In this document: piece after piece, positions 1,600 to 18,633 of the stretch
How the letters are laid out: the number at the start of each line of letters is the position of its first letter
Numbering within the stretch: position 1 is the stretch's first letter
Virus genome (UHGV): UHGV-0144289
Strand: one strand, 5' to 3'
DNA: 35,479 nt
Source: a virus
The notes under the pieces: generated by a model
What the model saw: only the letters and a program-made list of their open reading frames with translations
The model's database searches: none
What the model was told of the DNA's origin: nothing
Program-made: the position numbers and the translations under genes

Positions 1600-1828
1600 T
1601 AAAGATAGCTCCGAAGTCTGGTTCTTCCTCCCGCACCGTCTCTTCCTGCTGGTTGCGGTATTTAATCGGGTTCAGGAAATGGCCCCACGTCGTTTTAGGA
1701 TGGCCGTCTGCCCTTTCCATGAAAAAGACACCGGCCCGACGTAGCGCTTCACACTGCCTCGATTTAAGTGGGGTCCCCGTCAGTTCGATCATTTCCTCTC
1801 TGGTGATGATGTCGTGATCGTGTCTCAT
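1583..1828 (-). CDS. xis: Excisionase-like small DNA-binding protein
   Basis: 81-aa ORF directly upstream of and overlapping int by 17 nt; helix-turn-helix-like segment (REEMIELTGTPLKSRQCEALRRAG); start codon preceded by the GAGGAAAGACC start-associated motif. Confidence 0.5.
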   Translation of the reverse strand: MRHDHDIITREEMIELTGTPLKSRQCEALRRAGVFFMERADGHPKTTWGHFLNPIKYRNQQEETVREEEPDFGAIFNGRKT

Positions 1829-1988
1829 GGTCTTTCCTCAGCATGCCGGCTATCGCGTTGTCTGCCGTATCGCAAGCGCGTTGGATATCGGACTGGGTCA
1901 GAGTCCTCTTTCTAACGCTGGCTGATAGCCTGCCAATTTTGATATCGAAATCTGAAAGTAAAAGTGTGCCTGGTTGCCAACGTAGCAT
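1764..1988 (-). CDS. Hypothetical protein (doubtful ORF)
   Basis: 74-aa ORF overlapping the xis-like start by 65 nt; no recognisable domain; may be spurious or shorter. Confidence 0.2.
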   Translation of the reverse strand: MLRWQPGTLLLSDFDIKIGRLSASVRKRTLTQSDIQRACDTADNAIAGMLRKDHETRSRHHHQRGNDRTDGDPT

Positions 1989-2259: not shown

Positions 2260-2791
2260 GGTGAGCGCCCGGCACTGGGTTTAACAGTTCTTCCGGTATC
2301 TCTCCGCCGTCAGCGGTAATCTGGGCCGCCGCTGCCTGTGCTGATTCAATCGCTTCCTTGATGGCTTTCTTGTCCGGAGTGACTAACGTCTGAACTGTCA
2401 CTAATTCATCCGGCAGTAATTCATCATTATCGATCACGACGTTTATAGCTCCCTTACGTGCGGTAAAGGTATTTTTGGCGGTTTTAACCGTATCCTGACC
2501 GGCGGCCAGTAGACACTGGAGAACATATTTCTTCAGGTTCGTGATCTTACCTTCGAATGATTTTTTGCGGGCGGCAAGGCGTTTGGCCTCTTCATCGCAG
2601 GTTTTTGCCAGGCCTTCCAGATTGCGAACGTGGACGAAAACGGCATCCAGTTTATCGCCGAGTTGTAACTCAAGACCTTCCATTGTGTCGGCGATCATTT
2701 CAGGAGACAGACCAGCACCGTCTTCGTTTTCCAGTAGTGCCTGGAGTTTTGACATATCGGCTGCGATAGCAATTGCAGTGGTGGAAGTCAT
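2225..2791 (-). CDS. Siphovirus Gp157-family protein (commonly found next to phage recombinases)
   Basis: 188 aa; coiled-coil N-terminus and the pattern EEAKRLAARKKSFEGKITNLKKYVLQCL...TFTARKG...VIDNDELLPDEL, which resembles the Gp157 family as I recall it; immediately downstream of the annealing-protein gene. Confidence 0.5.
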   Translation of the reverse strand: MTSTTAIAIAADMSKLQALLENEDGAGLSPEMIADTMEGLELQLGDKLDAVFVHVRNLEGLAKTCDEEAKRLAARKKSFEGKITNLKKYVLQCLLAAGQDTVKTAKNTFTARKGAINVVIDNDELLPDELVTVQTLVTPDKKAIKEAIESAQAAAAQITADGGEIPEELLNPVPGAHLEIGERSLQVR

Positions 2792-4941
2792 TATGCTTTC
2801 TCCTCGGCTTTATTCAGTTCTTTAATGCGCCCATCTTTGATGGAGATGAGTCGGCGGAGCCGGCCAGACAGATAACGTTCATGCTGCGTGTCGCCGTTGG
2901 CCTGGGCGGCTTTAATGTGAACATCGATCTCACGTGCGATAGGGGAAAACACACCGTTGATTTCGTTCACCGTCACGCCATGCGCCAGGGTATTAGCAAC
3001 GCGGCTTAATTTATCGTCAAACTCCTGGCGGAGCCGTGCTGCATCTTCGGCTGATTCGCTGGCGTTCTTCAGGTCAAACTCGGCCTTGTTCTTCTGGCGG
3101 TACTCCAGATTGTCGTAAAGCCCCATAAAGATATCGCCACTGAATCCGAGGCCGGATAACGCTTTTTTGGTCGCATCTGTCAGTGATTTTTTGGCTGCTT
3201 CGCCGTCGCAGGTGATCCCGTATTTACTACCGTAAATGTAGGGTGTACAGCCGTATGCTGTTTCCTCACCTCGTACTCCGTTCAGGATGTACCAGAGCCG
3301 GACAGTCACAACATGGTGCTGTTCGTTGACGGTATTACCATTCCCATCAAGAACCAGCTCCCACGATGCGTTGTTGTCTTTGCCTTTTACCTGCCGAGTG
3401 ATCGGCGCGCCAATATCGAAACGCTCTTCAACAATATCCACGCCCCAGCCGATGCCCTTAGGGCCAAACTCACGTGTGGCAAGCATGGTCATGTAGGTAC
3501 CGTTGATCGAGGTGCCACCGCCGTTCTGTGTGAAAGCCTTAGTAAACCTTTCGTCGGTTTTAAATACGCGTTTCCAGAGGTCTAAATTGTCTTCCCCGAT
3601 AATTGGTTTTCCGACAGCCTGCACAACATCCTCAGCGTTAGGCAGGCTTTCAGCGTGAGCGATTTGTTTTGCTAAACGCTCGGAATCATCAGCCAGTTTT
3701 TCAGCCTTAACGCTTAACTTCTCTTCCGGCTCTGCACCTTCACCAGAGGCATATACGCCATAACCCATATCATTGAGCGTCTCACGCGCCTGTTTGGCCT
3801 GAGTGTCGGTTACAACCGGCTGCTGCGCTTCCACTTTTTCGCCCACGTTTGAGGCGGTATTTTGCGTCGCCTCTGGTTGTTTAACGGATCCTGTCTCGGT
3901 TTCCTCAAAGCGACCGTTGGCCGCCAGCCATGAATCGATATGGCGGCGCAGGCTGTCAGGGAAATGGTAGGTATCTTTCGCCGGTACGTTTTGTACCACG
4001 CCGAAGATGCTGGCACGGTCGTATTTGAGTATCTGCGGCGTGGTGTGCAGCGATGCTGACCAGCGTTTAAAATCTTCCCGGTCATCGGAAATCATCTTCT
4101 TAGCGTCCAGAAGGTTTCCGGATAGTACCGGCGCATCAGGCGCCAGCGGGAGAAGGGCGGTAGCGATCTCCTGATCCAGCGTTGCATAAGTGTGTTTATA
4201 CCCGCGCTTAGAAATTACCACGGGTGTTTTATCATCGGTGCTGGTGCTGAGAGCGGTATTTTTATATACGCCGGGGGCCAGTTCGTCGCGCTTGCCCGGA
4301 TTCTCAAGCCAGCGTTTAACGAACTGAGAGATAGCCGCTTTGCCCGGCGTCTGGTTTTCAAAGTGGGAGAAAATACCCTGAATAAGATTGTTCAGACCTT
4401 CCACATGCATGCTTTGAACCGGGAAGTTATTTTGCAGGGCGCACAGAACATTAAAGTTAAAGCGATCTTCCTCTTCAAATTCCCCATCGTGGTTTTTCAG
4501 ATTATCCAGATAATCCACAACCTGAGAATAAAGATGGCCATCAATCGCCGCGGTGCTAAAAAGCAGGACGGCAGCAAAGCGTTCATCAGGGGAAACGGTC
4601 ATCAGGTCGATCACTTCATCGTCGGCTGGTAAACCTGCACCACTTCCGGAAGCGCTATCCTGCGCAGTAGAAACCCATTTTTCACCGTCAAAAGTATGCT
4701 GCTGGGCGAATGACTCATCGAACTGGCCAACGGTCGGCAGCGGCTGGCCTTCAACGTGTTCCCACAGTTTCGGTTTGAAATAGTTGTCACCATTGGCCGG
4801 GTATGATTCCCAGAGTTTGCCGGTCATAATGCTTTCGGCCACTTTTTTGTTTGGCGCATCGATGGCGATCGCCAGCTGCACGGCGCCGCAGTCTTTAATC
4901 GCCGATTTCTTTGGCTCAAATGAGCCGTTGTAGATGGTCAT
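2791..4941 (-). CDS. Large recombination protein with a C-terminal Erf/Rad52-like single-strand annealing domain and a ~430-aa N-terminal region of unknown function
   Basis: 716 aa from the ATG at 4941 (preceded by GAGGAAAGACCA). The C-terminal third (YGCTPYIYGSKYGITCDGEAAKKSLTDATKKALSGLGFSGDIFMG) resembles the conserved core of Erf/Rad52-type annealing proteins. Position in the early-left operon fits a recombination function. Confidence 0.6.
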   Translation of the reverse strand: MTIYNGSFEPKKSAIKDCGAVQLAIAIDAPNKKVAESIMTGKLWESYPANGDNYFKPKLWEHVEGQPLPTVGQFDESFAQQHTFDGEKWVSTAQDSASGSGAGLPADDEVIDLMTVSPDERFAAVLLFSTAAIDGHLYSQVVDYLDNLKNHDGEFEEEDRFNFNVLCALQNNFPVQSMHVEGLNNLIQGIFSHFENQTPGKAAISQFVKRWLENPGKRDELAPGVYKNTALSTSTDDKTPVVISKRGYKHTYATLDQEIATALLPLAPDAPVLSGNLLDAKKMISDDREDFKRWSASLHTTPQILKYDRASIFGVVQNVPAKDTYHFPDSLRRHIDSWLAANGRFEETETGSVKQPEATQNTASNVGEKVEAQQPVVTDTQAKQARETLNDMGYGVYASGEGAEPEEKLSVKAEKLADDSERLAKQIAHAESLPNAEDVVQAVGKPIIGEDNLDLWKRVFKTDERFTKAFTQNGGGTSINGTYMTMLATREFGPKGIGWGVDIVEERFDIGAPITRQVKGKDNNASWELVLDGNGNTVNEQHHVVTVRLWYILNGVRGEETAYGCTPYIYGSKYGITCDGEAAKKSLTDATKKALSGLGFSGDIFMGLYDNLEYRQKNKAEFDLKNASESAEDAARLRQEFDDKLSRVANTLAHGVTVNEINGVFSPIAREIDVHIKAAQANGDTQHERYLSGRLRRLISIKDGRIKELNKAEEKA

Positions 4942-4985
4942 TGGTCTTTCCTCTTGGTTACTGGCGCAGGTCACGCGCCGGTTAA

Positions 4986-5309
4986 TTAAAACGGTACGTC
5001 GCTTTCTTCAATTGGAGAGTGATCGATGCACAGCAGCTGCTGAATCTGGTCTTCAATAACACCCAGCTCCTTCTTTGCTTCGGCAGAGATTTTCTCTTTC
5101 TTCGCACGAAGGGCATTAACCTGCATACCAATAATGTCGATTGGCTCTAAAGCTGGAATGGCAACCTCTACCGTTTTGGTAGTAACGAGGACATACAGAT
5201 CAGGGTATTGCTGTGACATGTCACAGGTGAATGAGTGATAAGACGTTGGTAGATATGGTTTGGTTGTGGCCATAACGTAAATAGTTACGGGGATGGTAAG
5301 CGCTTCCAT
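4986..5309 (-). CDS. Hypothetical protein, first gene of the leftward early operon
   Basis: 107-aa ORF with RBS AAGGAG 7 nt upstream of the ATG; no domain recognised. Confidence 0.6.
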   Translation of the reverse strand: MEALTIPVTIYVMATTKPYLPTSYHSFTCDMSQQYPDLYVLVTTKTVEVAIPALEPIDIIGMQVNALRAKKEKISAEAKKELGVIEDQIQQLLCIDHSPIEESDVPF

Positions 5310-5333
5310 AGCGACTCCTTGATGATATATACT

Positions 5334-5452
5334 CAGAGCCGATCAGCGGCTCTGTCGTTGGTCTTTCCTCGCTACAGGGTTGGTCCCCTGTAGCATTCTG
5401 GGCGGTTTGGTCACTGTCCCGGGTAAATTAGCCCACTTCGGTGGGCTTTTTT
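5334..5452 (+). ncRNA. Candidate small antisense RNA in the early-left leader (speculative)
   Basis: Possible extended -10 (TGATATATA, ~5323-5331), then two strong hairpins (5334-5354 and 5371-5394) and a textbook intrinsic terminator on the plus strand (AGCCCAC-TTCG-GTGGGCT plus six T, 5430-5452). No plus-strand gene exists here. Confidence 0.25.
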
Positions 5453-5527
5453 ACGCCTGAAGGTTGCCGGTCTTTCCCGGCTGTCAGGGTGGTCAGCCCC
5501 ATTGGTCTTTCCTCGTTACTGCGTGAA

Positions 5528-5560
5528 TGCTTTAAAAAAATGCCCGGGGCGCCCGGGCCA
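5528..5560 (-). terminator. Intrinsic terminator on the minus strand within the early-left leader
   Basis: On the minus strand: GC-rich hairpin GCCCGGGCGCCCCGGGC followed by TTTTTTT. Lies between the putative PL promoter and the first early-left gene, implying an antitermination requirement. Confidence 0.5.
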
Positions 5561-5748
5561 AGACTACACACAGCAATTCGTATTCGTTGCGGTCTTTCCC
5601 GCATGTCATCGTACTGTCGGCGACCCGAAGAATTCGCGCCCGTCTTTCCGGACTGTCAGAACTGTTTCTGAACAACTGCCGCGTGGTTAGTGCGTCTTTG
5701 ATGTGGTGAAGCATAACCAAAGGTATTTTTATTGGCAATGTTTTTTAC

Positions 5749-5760
5749 TAACAAAAGTTA
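5749..5760. promoter_or_regulatory. Operator-type site TAAC-AAAA-GTTA next to the putative leftward early promoter
   Basis: Same TAAC-N4-GTTA dyad as the two sites in the repressor/cro intergenic region. Confidence 0.45.
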
Positions 5761-5767
5761 ATATTAG

Positions 5768-5805
5768 AGGTGTAAAAAAAGGCAATGCATTGAAAACATT
5801 GCCTT
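5768..5805 (-). terminator. Terminator downstream of the repressor gene (hairpin AGGCAATG...CATTGCCT flanked by A/T runs on both sides; potentially bidirectional)
   Basis: 8-bp perfect stem with a poly-T tract on the minus strand immediately after the repressor stop. Confidence 0.5.
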
Positions 5806-5809
5806 TAAT

Positions 5810-6223
5810 TTATTTTTTTGGAGTGTTTTTTTTCTTTTTTACCAAAAGTAACTCATCAAACAATCGCTGGAATCCGTCAACTTTATCTTTCAACTCATTG
5901 ATATGTCTATCTTTTTCTGATTCAGGTAGAGAATCAAAAAGATCAAGCAGTAGCTTTTGGCGATCATCTAACCGAGGTAAAAGCTCTTCTGCCTTCAACG
6001 GTTCATCGCTATCGGTACCGTTAAGTAACCATGTCGGAGAGCAACGAAGAGCCTCAGCGAGAGAAAACAGATTTTGCCCTTTTGGGGTGTTAATACCTGC
6101 TTCCCACTTGTAAACGCTGACGCCAGATATGCCAACGGCATCGGCGAGCTGCTGTTGTGTCAAACCAAGCTCTTTCCGTCTCGATGTAATGCGATCGTTA
6201 AAGGTCAATTTTTTCATATCCAT
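5810..6223 (-). CDS. Prophage repressor, XRE-family helix-turn-helix protein with no recognisable autocleavage (peptidase S24-like) domain
   Basis: 137 aa; N-terminal HTH (LTQQQLADAVGISGVSVYKWEAG); divergent from the cro-like gene across an operator region; the C-terminal part is acidic/coiled-coil with a lysine tail and shows no LexA/cI-type catalytic signature. Confidence 0.8.
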   Translation of the reverse strand: MDMKKLTFNDRITSRRKELGLTQQQLADAVGISGVSVYKWEAGINTPKGQNLFSLAEALRCSPTWLLNGTDSDEPLKAEELLPRLDDRQKLLLDLFDSLPESEKDRHINELKDKVDGFQRLFDELLLVKKKKNTPKK

Positions 6224-6228
6224 AATAT

Positions 6229-6281
6229 AAGTTAACTTGACATAACTTTCGTTAGTATTTATGTTCCTAACTGACGTTAGG
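6229..6281. promoter_or_regulatory. Immunity switch region: rightward early promoter (-35 TTGACA 6237-6242, -10 TATGTT ~6260-6265) with two operator dyads TAAC-TTTC-GTTA (6243-6254) and TAAC-TGAC-GTTA (6268-6279)
   Basis: Dyads overlap the spacer and start region of the promoter that would drive the cro-like gene; the repressor gene starts divergently at 6223. Confidence 0.55.
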
Positions 6282-6291
6282 AGAGGAAACT

Positions 6292-6489
6292 ATGAAGACC
6301 GAAACTGTTATCAGATTTTTTGGAACTAAAACCGCTGTTGCGCGTGCATTAGGTATCTCTCAAGTCGCTGTAACCCGCTGGGGGACTGTTGTTCCTGAAA
6401 AGCGAGCTGCGCGACTTGAGCATGTAACCGCGGGCGCCTTGAAGTACGACCCTACTTTTTACGAAGAGCAAAACACGTCTAAAGCATAA
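6292..6489 (+). CDS. Cro-like / YdaS-like small HTH regulator
   Basis: 65 aa; HTH (TKTAVARALGISQVAVTRW); first gene of the rightward early operon, RBS AGGAGAGG. Confidence 0.7.
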   Translation: MKTETVIRFFGTKTAVARALGISQVAVTRWGTVVPEKRAARLEHVTAGALKYDPTFYEEQNTSKA

Positions 6490-6998: not shown

Positions 6999-7018
6999 CC
7001 TGTACCGAGGAAAGACCA

Positions 7019-7240
7019 ATGAGAACACAAGACCGCATCACCTGGCGGAACGGGTTTCGCCGGAACGGGGTACAAGTCCCGATGGAAGATATCGAATCGA
7101 TTTTCGAGGAACGTCGCGCTACTGCGCTGACAATCTGGGAACGCTACGAACTGCGCAAGGCAGACCTGCAGGAAGCGGGACTTACCCAGAAAGAATACGA
7201 AATCGCCTGCCGTCAGCTGGCTGACTCGCTGGGGATCTGA
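7019..7240 (+). CDS. Hypothetical small protein upstream of the replication genes
   Basis: 73 aa; ATG preceded by the GAGGAAAGACCA start-associated motif. Confidence 0.6.
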   Translation: MRTQDRITWRNGFRRNGVQVPMEDIESIFEERRATALTIWERYELRKADLQEAGLTQKEYEIACRQLADSLGI

Positions 7241-9620: not shown

Positions 9621-9658
9621 CCGCGCCTGACCAGCGCGATTTAACTGAGGAAAGACCA

Positions 9659-10327
9659 ATGACCACGAATTTAAATTACCCAAAACCAGTAAAACCGGAT
9701 GATGGCTGCAACTGGCTCCCCGTTATTCTCTGGCGCATGAATGCCGGTGCGCGCGCCCGTAGCCGTTCCGTGTTCGTAGCGGCGCCACGTCCGGCCCCTG
9801 TACCAGGCATCACCCCGCAAAAACCGATTAAGCGAGAAATTATCGCCCCTACGGTTTCCGGCCGCAGGCGTAAAACCCACATCGGCACCGTGATTTATTC
9901 CAGAGGTGAAAAAAGCGTTCGCCTTAGCGAAGGCGCGACTGTCTGGTCTGCTGGCTCAAATGAGCATTTCGATAAAAAAACGGGCCAGCGCGTCGGCAGT
10001 ATTGGTCGTCACCGTCTGGTGCTGGAGAGTATCCGCCCATTGCAGGCCAGCGACGCACAACAGGACGCCGGGAGCGTCACCGCGCAGCAACTGGTAGCCG
10101 TGATGAAAGGCAAAACGCTTTCTTACCAGGGCATTCTGGCATTAATCCAGAAGCACTATCCCGATTGTCAGGTGACGACTAAAGAACTTCACGATCGCGT
10201 GTTCGGCATGTTCATGTCGAATTACGTGGGTATCACCCGTCACGACGATATGCCGGTGGTTCACTTCACGCTTAACAGCGTCGATCCCCGTTATTACATC
10301 GAGTCAGCGAAGAACAAGAGGGCATAA
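9659..10327 (+). CDS. Hypothetical protein (no recognised domain)
   Basis: 222 aa; ATG preceded by GAGGAAAGACCA and a conserved upstream block GCGCCTGACCAGCG. Confidence 0.6.
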   Translation: MTTNLNYPKPVKPDDGCNWLPVILWRMNAGARARSRSVFVAAPRPAPVPGITPQKPIKREIIAPTVSGRRRKTHIGTVIYSRGEKSVRLSEGATVWSAGSNEHFDKKTGQRVGSIGRHRLVLESIRPLQASDAQQDAGSVTAQQLVAVMKGKTLSYQGILALIQKHYPDCQVTTKELHDRVFGMFMSNYVGITRHDDMPVVHFTLNSVDPRYYIESAKNKRA

Positions 10328-18183: not shown

Positions 18184-18216
18184 CATGTCACGACAACCTA
18201 ACCAGAGGAAAGACCA

Positions 18217-18633
18217 ATGAGCGACAAAGATATCGAGCAGCAAATTCAGGCTAAAGGCTTAACCGCGCCGCGCGTTACGCCTGATCATATCGAGAGCGTT
18301 ATCAAAGAGTGCCATTATCTCAACGTCGGCGAAGCGGTTCAGGCGGGCTGGCCTGATAAGTCGGCAATGGACGATTGCAGCCCAGCGCTGAACCTGCTGA
18401 CGATTTGTGTTCTGGTGCTGCACAACGGCTTCACCGTCACGGGCGAAAGCGCCTGCGCCAGCCCGCAAAACTTCGACCCGGAGATCGGTCGCAAGATTGC
18501 CCGCGAGAATGCGGTTAACAAGATTTGGATGCTGGAAGGTTACCTGCTGAAACAAAAGCTCAGTGAGCAGTGTACCGATGAGCGCATGTGTGAAAACTGC
18601 TACTCCGGCCAGGGCGCCTGTAATAACAAGTAA
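18217..18633 (+). CDS. Hypothetical protein with Cys-rich C-terminus
   Basis: 138 aa; ATG preceded by GAGGAAAGACCA; C-terminal CTDERMCENCYSGQGACNNK. Confidence 0.55.
   Translation: MSDKDIEQQIQAKGLTAPRVTPDHIESVIKECHYLNVGEAVQAGWPDKSAMDDCSPALNLLTICVLVLHNGFTVTGESACASPQNFDPEIGRKIARENAVNKIWMLEGYLLKQKLSEQCTDERMCENCYSGQGACNNK

Follow-up and report, generated by a model that had tools for sequence, protein, structure and literature searches.

A transcription terminator that stands behind no gene of its own strand raises the question of which transcript it ends. Such an orphan terminator is found in a stretch of 35,479 nucleotides (nt) from the virus genome UHGV-0144289, here called the window, where it occupies the plus strand opposite the leader of the early-left transcript, that is, upstream of a first early-left gene encoding a protein of 107 amino acids (aa). 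An initial annotation of this DNA had read it as the end of an antisense small RNA (sRNA) of ~110 nt made from its own promoter. Our analysis agrees with that proposal in its essentials, given a conserved -10 box, covariation on the plus strand, the T-run, a constant gene linkage and kinship to the prophage RNA IsrB, and we hold it very probable that a real IsrB-like sRNA gene is present on the plus strand. The features of the predicted gene and of the overlapping messenger structure are the following.

5305-5310, plus strand: -35 element TCCATA, weak (3 of 6 matches), with a 17-bp spacer to the -10 box
5328-5333, plus strand: -10 box TATACT; TATACT or TATAAT at the same position in 77 of 77 relatives
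5339-5452, plus strand: predicted sRNA of ~114 nt, matched end to end by covariance model R1 (131.6 bits)
5341-5350 with 5354-5363, plus strand: helix P1, GAUCAGCGGC paired with GUCGUUGGUC; GATC at 5341-5344 invariant
5364-5370, plus strand: linker UUUCCUC, single-stranded and anti-Shine-Dalgarno-like
5371-5379 with 5386-5394, plus strand: helix P2, loop UUGGUC at 5380-5385
5397-5406 with 5413-5423, plus strand: helix P3, U5417 bulged, loop UUGGUC at 5407-5412
5334-5354, minus strand: mRNA hairpin (CAGAGCCGCUGAUCGGCUCUG) that directly precedes the Shine-Dalgarno sequence of the 107-aa gene and overlaps the sRNA start

A conserved, structured RNA on the plus strand

A terminator scan placed the intrinsic terminator at 5430-5452 on the plus strand, opposite the pL leader as had been claimed, with stem arms AGCCCAC (5430-5436) and GTGGGCT (5441-5447), a TTCG loop (5437-5440) and a T-run at 5447-5452. 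All six T residues attributed to that run are there, but the first of them pairs with A5430, leaving five past the stem. Sites combining a hairpin and a T-run are not rare in this DNA (7 seen versus 4.0 expected in 3 kb); the element goes far beyond a chance hairpin, with four helices covarying among 46 distinct relatives. The terminator stem is itself one of the covarying helices (AGCCCAC/GUGGGCU versus GGCCCGC/GCGGGCC), and the run of 4-7 T that follows it is retained in all relatives, on the plus strand only. Upstream, the claimed absence of a plus-strand gene was also borne out: the plus-strand open reading frames (ORFs) within 4784-5238 are of 34-49 aa and nested in minus-strand genes with strong PHROG matches. 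Two other ORFs were considered as genes and rejected, one of 58 aa (5428-5604), which crosses a terminator and lacks a Shine-Dalgarno sequence, and one of 24 aa on the minus strand (5513-5428), which ends inside the terminator and whose AUG is lost in relatives such as L001. The predicted sRNA contains no AUG and is therefore considered non-coding.

Relatives were collected by BLAST, which yielded E. coli prophages and two deposited phages, and by a DNA-pattern scan, which yielded 101 viral contigs and also genomes of Serratia, Citrobacter, Raoultella, Rosenbergiella, Pseudescherichia and Escherichia whittamii. Alignment A2 comprised 46 distinct sequences, on which RNAalifold predicted the four helices (P1-P4). 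The pattern used for the scan prescribed part of the sequence and thereby imposed the invariance of TTGGTCTTTCC and GTTGGTCC in A2, which was therefore re-examined in a second set of 49 loci (24 distinct variants) collected through the 107-aa protein alone (48-99% identity). About 450 of 5,426 complete E. coli genomes matched a 501-nt window region, and two E. coli loci that were fetched showed a variant with 90 bits by R1 and an insertion in the P1 loop. Among deposited phages, BLAST with the element found only two near-identical 'Stenotrophomonas' phages, the other matches being to a generic UUCG terminator, so that no studied model phage is represented. Entry OM816834.1 ('Stenotrophomonas phage vB_SmeS_BUCT708'; L002/L208) is 87% identical in the window region and has the immunity region and early genes of enterobacterial prophages; its assignment to a Stenotrophomonas host looks doubtful.

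The plus-strand RNA 5340-5452 folded at -54.9 kcal/mol (z = -6.5, with none of 200 shuffles as good), compared to a weaker -39.9 kcal/mol for the minus strand. Over the 33 pairs of alignment A2, 96.6% of the cells were paired versus 88.0% in shuffles, 17 of those pairs showed compensatory changes on both sides (134 cells), and the covariation score was 0.364, versus 0.05-0.09 when the 3' partners were slid by 1-3 columns. P1-P4 contained 246 G-U cells and just 6 A·C cells, indicating that selection acts on the plus-strand RNA, since an RNA of the opposite strand would show the reverse; a structure predicted on the plus strand does favour G-U, but the 41-fold excess far exceeds that bias. The same counts disagree with a structure belonging to the leader sense only, which the initial annotation had named as the outcome contrary to its proposal.

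The individual helices differ in how they vary. Eight pairs of P1 were paired in every one of the 46 sequences, two pairs carried double changes, and neither its invariant U-G nor its frequent G-U pairs could form on the minus strand; its predicted energy is -12.9 kcal/mol. P2 was paired in 98.3% of its cells, with compensatory double changes in 7 of its 9 pairs, and its loop was retained though the E. coli variant replaces the stem fully. P3 showed double changes in 5 of 10 pairs and many G-U pairs. In the 24 protein-ascertained variants, the stems of P2 and P3 change completely while their loops read UUGGUC (GUGGUU in two); the UUGGUC loops fit the YUNR U-turn type and may form U-turns.

Whereas two hairpins had been described ahead of the terminator, three were found, and the one taken as the first (5334-5354) proved to be mainly a structure of the mRNA strand, the 5' helix of the sRNA being P1 instead. 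In several relatives the variants of 5334-5354 leave G-U pairs on the minus strand where the plus strand would have A·C, with minus/plus energies of -10.4/-6.8, -8.1/-2.8 and -11.5/-6.6 kcal/mol in example relatives.

The distance between the -10 box and the RNA structure is fixed in all relatives, Serratia-type relatives have a perfect extended -10 (TGATATAAT), and in IsrB of Gifsy-2 the corresponding box is TAGAAT, 6 nt ahead of the mapped 5' end. The extended -10 originally singled out, TGATATATA at 5323-5331 on the plus strand, is present in the window, but most relatives read TGATGTATA there and it was rejected as a promoter element for lack of conservation, the conserved -10 being TATACT at 5328-5333. 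From the position of this box the sRNA should start at ~5339, and we infer, rather than map, a 5' end at about 5338-5341. A GATC (Dam) site at 5341-5344, right after the predicted start, is invariant in all but one relative. Pairing may explain this invariance because GATC forms the base of P1; methylation control of the sRNA promoter through this site is conceivable as well.

Could the terminator merely insulate the immunity region from stray plus-strand transcription, or attenuate pL bidirectionally, with the hairpins being leader structures of the mRNA? The minus-strand tail after the hairpin is U-rich in some relatives (UUCUUUUAC, Serratia type), which could attenuate pL, and 5334-5354 is indeed an mRNA-strand hairpin. 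However, the minus-strand tail in the window is UAAUUUAC, poor for termination, the excess of G-U over A·C cells puts P1-P4 on the plus strand, the -10 box is conserved, and the homologue IsrB was detected as a discrete RNA by Northern blot and primer extension (PMC2330248). We consider this explanation very improbable.

Position opposite the early-left leader and kinship to IsrB

The leftward elements that fix the position of the sRNA are these.

5710-5738, minus strand: pL-like promoter TTGCCA-17-TATGCT, downstream of a cI-like gene and followed by a ~390-nt leader
4986-5309, minus strand: first early-left gene, 107 aa, phrog_2479; Shine-Dalgarno AAGGAG at 5320-5315, start at 5309
2791-4941, minus strand: 716-aa exonuclease gene, phrog_2489, behind the 107-aa gene

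The sRNA lies opposite the last ~115 nt of the pL leader and 30 nt short of the start codon of the 107-aa gene, in keeping with the complementarity to the early-left leader that had been proposed. All 49 loci of the 107-aa protein carried the RNA antisense and upstream of the ORF; the gap between its 5' end and the ORF start was 30 nt in 45 loci and 23-24 nt in L204-L207, the four most distant.

This arrangement is that of IsrB, an RNA of 88/94 nt encoded between sbcA (recE) and STM1010 in a leftward, rightward, leftward order (PMC2330248): the window sRNA has an IsrB-like antisense position between leftward ORFs of the early-left operon, near a recombination exonuclease. The covariance-model search against Rfam and related prophages that the initial annotation had suggested gave no family at threshold, and a sub-threshold isrB match made reciprocal by R1. 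At curated thresholds, the window matched three tRNAs only in Rfam, with no family for the sRNA element. The isrB model (RF01386, gathering threshold 35) matched 5367-5451 with 28.7 bits (E 0.0098) and the Serratia-type L027, the best relative tested, with 33.1 bits (E 4e-4) and a 31-nt insertion. In the reverse direction, the best non-self matches of R1 were IsrB of Gifsy-2/SPN3UB at its published place (2498-2589; 23.7 bits, E 3.6e-4) and HK225 (18.5 bits), in an alignment that spans P1, P3 and the terminator and from which the linker and P2 are missing. The similarity to bona fide IsrB in sequence and structure was thus reciprocal. Given these reciprocal matches and the same architecture in Gifsy-2, we conclude that the predicted window RNA and IsrB are distant homologues, the former being the extended one: it corresponds to IsrB plus a 31-nt insertion made up of the linker and P2.

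Both RNAs are antisense to a lambdoid early-left operon, in the gap directly ahead of a gene close to the recombination exonuclease, and in both cases ~20 nt separate the -10 box from the start codon of this gene; in Gifsy-2, TAGAAT is 20 nt from the recE start codon and the IsrB terminator abuts the STM1010 stop. Both also consist of a 5' helix, a helix with the loop UUUGGUC, which is common to IsrB of Gifsy-2 and HK225, and a terminator with a CUUCGG loop. Unlike IsrB, in which P2 is not present, the window RNA reaches 114 nt, and its insertion completes a seed complementary to a repeated translation initiation region (TIR). Its flanking genes, phrog_2479 and the phrog_2489 exonuclease, are not homologous to STM1010 and RecE, and Gifsy lacks the GGAAAGACC repeats of the window. 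The extended IsrB-like variant is absent from Rfam, and we found no paper describing it.

IsrB was recovered with Hfq and with ProQ and is induced by starvation (PMC2330248, PMC5391140), which would suit a moron-like regulator of host mRNAs acting through ProQ or Hfq, with an incidental antisense position. The U6 tail after an A/U-rich stretch, the high degree of structure (as in ProQ ligands) and the conserved UUGGUC loops, a fixed sequence that a purely cis-antisense RNA does not need, point the same way. Against this, the linkage to the phage gene is invariable, 45 of 49 loci have the 30-nt spacing, and it is to phage sequences that the seed corresponds, so that we regard a host-directed role as improbable. 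Both this explanation and that of an insulating terminator are less likely; a mainly trans-acting role within the phage is the most interesting rival.

The repeated cassette, the complementary seed and the proposed brake

That rival stems from the sequences to which the RNA is complementary, located as follows.

5354-5371, plus strand: anti-TIR seed GUCGUUGGUCUUUCCUCG, complementary to GAGGAAAGACCAAUG
4939-4953, minus strand: TIR cassette GAGGAAAGACCAAUG of the 716-aa exonuclease gene (start 4941), seed duplex -30.5 kcal/mol
1826-1839, minus strand: cassette at the start at 1828
7007-7021, plus strand: cassette at the start at 7019
9647-9661, plus strand: cassette at the start at 9659
18205-18219, plus strand: cassette at the start at 18217
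5498-5514, minus strand: pseudo-TIR cassette GAGGAAAGACCAAUGGG, which would open the unconserved 24-aa ORF
5466-5481, minus strand: leader hairpin GCCGG-GAAAGA-CCGGC, loop and closing pairs complementary to sRNA GGUCUUUCC
5588-5603, minus strand: leader hairpin UGCGG-GAAAGA-CCGCA
5638-5653, minus strand: leader hairpin GUCCG-GAAAGA-CGGGC, with a U-G pair valid on the minus strand only

The repeats that had been noticed in the leader are real, the GGTCTTTCC/GGAAAGACC motif occurring in 9 copies in the window versus 0.27 expected. GGAAAGACC takes three forms, namely ribosome-binding cassettes, pseudo-cassettes of the leader, which have no conserved AUG and one of which lies inside the sRNA gene, and leader hairpins. 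The cassette proper, GAGGAAAGACC(A)AUG, stands at five real starts on both strands, those of a xis-like gene, the exonuclease gene, two early-right genes and a late gene. These five genes are non-homologous and belong to three operons, and UAAC of an upstream stop codon usually precedes the cassette; it is unusual for an initiation region of 13-15 nt to be common to unrelated genes. CsrA sites were rejected as an explanation of GGAAAGACC by reasoning only, since the motif departs from ANGGA and its length and specificity are too great for such sites.

Duplexes of the seed with the five real cassettes comprised 16-19 bp, including the Shine-Dalgarno sequence and the AUG, with energies from -25.9 to -30.6 kcal/mol, and the five cassette starts were the best five seed targets of the ~215 ORF starts in the window (median -9.9 kcal/mol). 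Only this seed-limited calculation was informative, because chance long looped duplexes made the energies of full-length sRNA/TIR duplexes non-discriminating. Within the seed region, GGTCTTTCCT was invariant in the 24 distinct variants, which had been gathered via the protein and not via the sRNA sequence. The cassette was also found at several gene starts in a complete relative genome and in distant Serratia-type phages, where its Shine-Dalgarno part varies while GGAAAGACCA does not, and all 19 viral contigs with at least two cassettes carried the sRNA.

All these observations would fit an sRNA that works mainly in trans, as a phage-wide regulator directed against the ribosome-binding sites of early-left, early-right and late genes, with the leader copies of GGAAAGACC as decoys that titrate it after induction and the leader overlap being secondary. 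Nevertheless, these observations are no proof: the complementarity arises automatically from the overlap of the sRNA gene with one cassette copy; inheritance of 5' ends among homologous genes keeps conservation of the cassette from being independent evidence; and about half of the seed is buried in P1. Moreover, IsrB has no seed and Gifsy no repeats, hence the ancestral function cannot depend on the seed. Searches for repeated trans sites of IsrB in Gifsy-2, SPN3UB and HK225 returned chance 8-9-mers only, and no covarying change between seed and cassette was found, one weak case in L149 apart. We treat a mainly trans role as a tentative alternative, compatible with the reading that we prefer. 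A bolder version, in which a constitutive prophage sRNA represses all genes with GAGGAAAGACCAAUG, including those of related superinfecting phages that share the cassette, until an excess of induced pL leader (five GGAAAGACC copies, three of them in hairpin loops) titrates the sRNA and releases the whole set at once, seems rather unlikely to us.

The reading that we prefer, and hold to be moderately probable as a whole, is that of a ~114-nt IsrB-like antisense sRNA acting as a cis brake on early-left expression, possibly also in trans on the cassette genes. The sRNA would be transcribed from its own sigma-70 promoter and stopped at the UUCG-loop terminator and, as repression of pL leaves this promoter unaffected, lysogens are expected to contain the RNA. 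It would pair with any pL transcript, making loop-loop contacts through its UUGG-type loops first; once extended, the pairing would either lead to cleavage or decay of the duplex or remodel the stretch that immediately precedes the ribosome-binding site. In both cases less would be expressed of the 107-aa gene and of the exonuclease/recombination genes behind it, the sRNA serving as a brake on leaky or early pL expression. Since the 5' part of the RNA is complementary to the cassette of at least five phage genes, repression in trans is plausible. The comparisons establish the conservation of the gene, its strand, structure and complementarities and its linkage to the 107-aa gene, whereas its transcription in this host, its partners, the nucleases involved and the direction of regulation are inferred.

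Several points weigh against this cis-brake reading. Between the end of the cis duplex and the Shine-Dalgarno sequence of the 107-aa gene there remain 18 nt, so that it is not obvious how the ribosome would be occluded directly. The seed stretch UUGGUC is sequestered in P1, and trans pairing would thus have to proceed by strand invasion that starts at the 7-nt linker. The co-occurrence of cassettes and sRNA may reflect no more than the relatedness of the phages. A consensus promoter scan did not call the sRNA promoter, its -35 element being weak. None of 12 relatives passed the isrB gathering threshold, which leaves the element outside the family as strictly defined by Rfam, and IsrB itself is expressed in lysogens with no assigned function (PMC7067206).

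Surroundings of the sRNA gene and comparison with other regulatory RNAs

The region is the immunity region of a lambdoid prophage, which is integrated beside a tRNA-Gly/Cys/Leu cluster, and further elements are found in the window.

5810-6223, minus strand: cI-like helix-turn-helix repressor gene
5770-5812: A/T-flanked hairpin AAAGGCAATG...CATTGCCTTT between the cI 3' end and pL
5633-5532, minus strand: RprA-like RNA of the pL leader with a strong intrinsic terminator of its own (stem 5558-5542, U-run to ~5535)
583-1599, leftward: 338-aa ORF
151-452: tRNA-Gly(GCC), tRNA-Cys(GCA) and tRNA-Leu(TAA)

Genes for Cro (P22_Cro), a YdaT/cII-like protein, replication and a helicase lie to the right of the cI-like gene. 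The 338-aa ORF, which follows the tRNA genes, is by its position a putative integrase and marks the prophage end next to the tRNA operon. The hairpin at 5770-5812 looks like a bidirectional terminator and gave weak sub-threshold matches to STnc240 and other sRNA models.

The three leader hairpins are boxB-like, having a 5-bp stem and a GAAAGA loop, often with CUGACAG before them; their N5-GAAAGA-N5 stems covary across relatives with G-U pairs valid only on the minus strand. Two of them are upstream of the leader terminator, which suggests antitermination or a protein-binding site; no candidate ORF for an N-like arginine-rich antiterminator was found in the leader or just downstream. The Rfam RprA model (RF00034) matched the window with 43.3 bits (E 0.0013) and two relatives with 50.2 and 48.3 bits, all below its gathering threshold of 70. 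The likeness concerns the 3' half only, that is, the core AUUGCUGUGUGUAGUCUU plus the terminator, with 22 nt in common (ACGAAUUGCUGUGUGUAGUCUU), and the middle hairpin of RprA aligns with a GGAAAGACC leader hairpin. This element could imitate the host sRNA as a product of pL, act as an attenuator or hint at how RprA originated; we found no paper on a phage RprA-like RNA. An E. whittamii-type relative (L052, 3417-3614, minus strand) gave 80.4 bits for isrK, 74.5 for C4 antisense RNA and 52.9 for c4-a1b1, all above the Rfam thresholds, so that several distinct regulatory RNAs are present in one prophage.

Lambda OOP and P22 sar are short, constitutive antisense RNAs of temperate phages that end at an intrinsic terminator and pair with mRNA of a regulatory region. 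The analogy with them drawn by the initial annotation holds for function only and does not extend to a family relationship: OOP is antisense to the 3' end of cII, in the rightward operon, sar covers the ant ribosome-binding site of immI, and the window sRNA targets the pL leader; neither sar (RF00262) nor OOP was among the 13 Rfam matches at E up to 10 in 4700-6300. The P1/P7 c4, P4 CI and N15 CA RNAs are complementary to operon repeats that include a ribosome-binding site, and the window sRNA resembles them in being complementary to a repeated sequence that includes ribosome-binding sites. In contrast to the window sRNA, which is transcribed antisense from the opposite strand, they are processed from a same-sense leader, and their repeats, which have another sequence, stay within a single operon; the C4 model (RF01695) matched nothing in the window, whether at the gathering threshold or at E up to 10.

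The plasmid kissing-loop antisense RNAs CopA, RNAI and Sok are said to share YUNR loops (reportedly Franch et al. 1999). The window RNA is like them in having stable stem-loops whose 6-7-nt loops start with a U-turn-type motif (UUGG) opposite complementary hairpins, whereas the replicons and sequences are unrelated. STnc6030 of the Salmonella prophage BTP1 is a lysogen-expressed antisense RNA that blocks a related superinfecting phage by mRNA pairing (PMC7067206, where OOP is also described); with 786 nt and a position opposite late structural genes, it has no structural similarity to the window sRNA.

The kind of RNA described here is already known, as prophage antisense sRNAs and specifically as IsrB, which was found in 2008. 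The locus places IsrB in a much larger and widespread family of prophage antisense RNAs, always opposite the early-left operon and not captured by Rfam. The extended members carry an explicit candidate target, the shared cassette, which makes the function of IsrB-type RNAs directly testable. Should early-left or cassette genes indeed be braked by this RNA, lysogeny control or superinfection exclusion would, in a common group of enterobacterial prophages, include an RNA layer in addition to the CI repressor.

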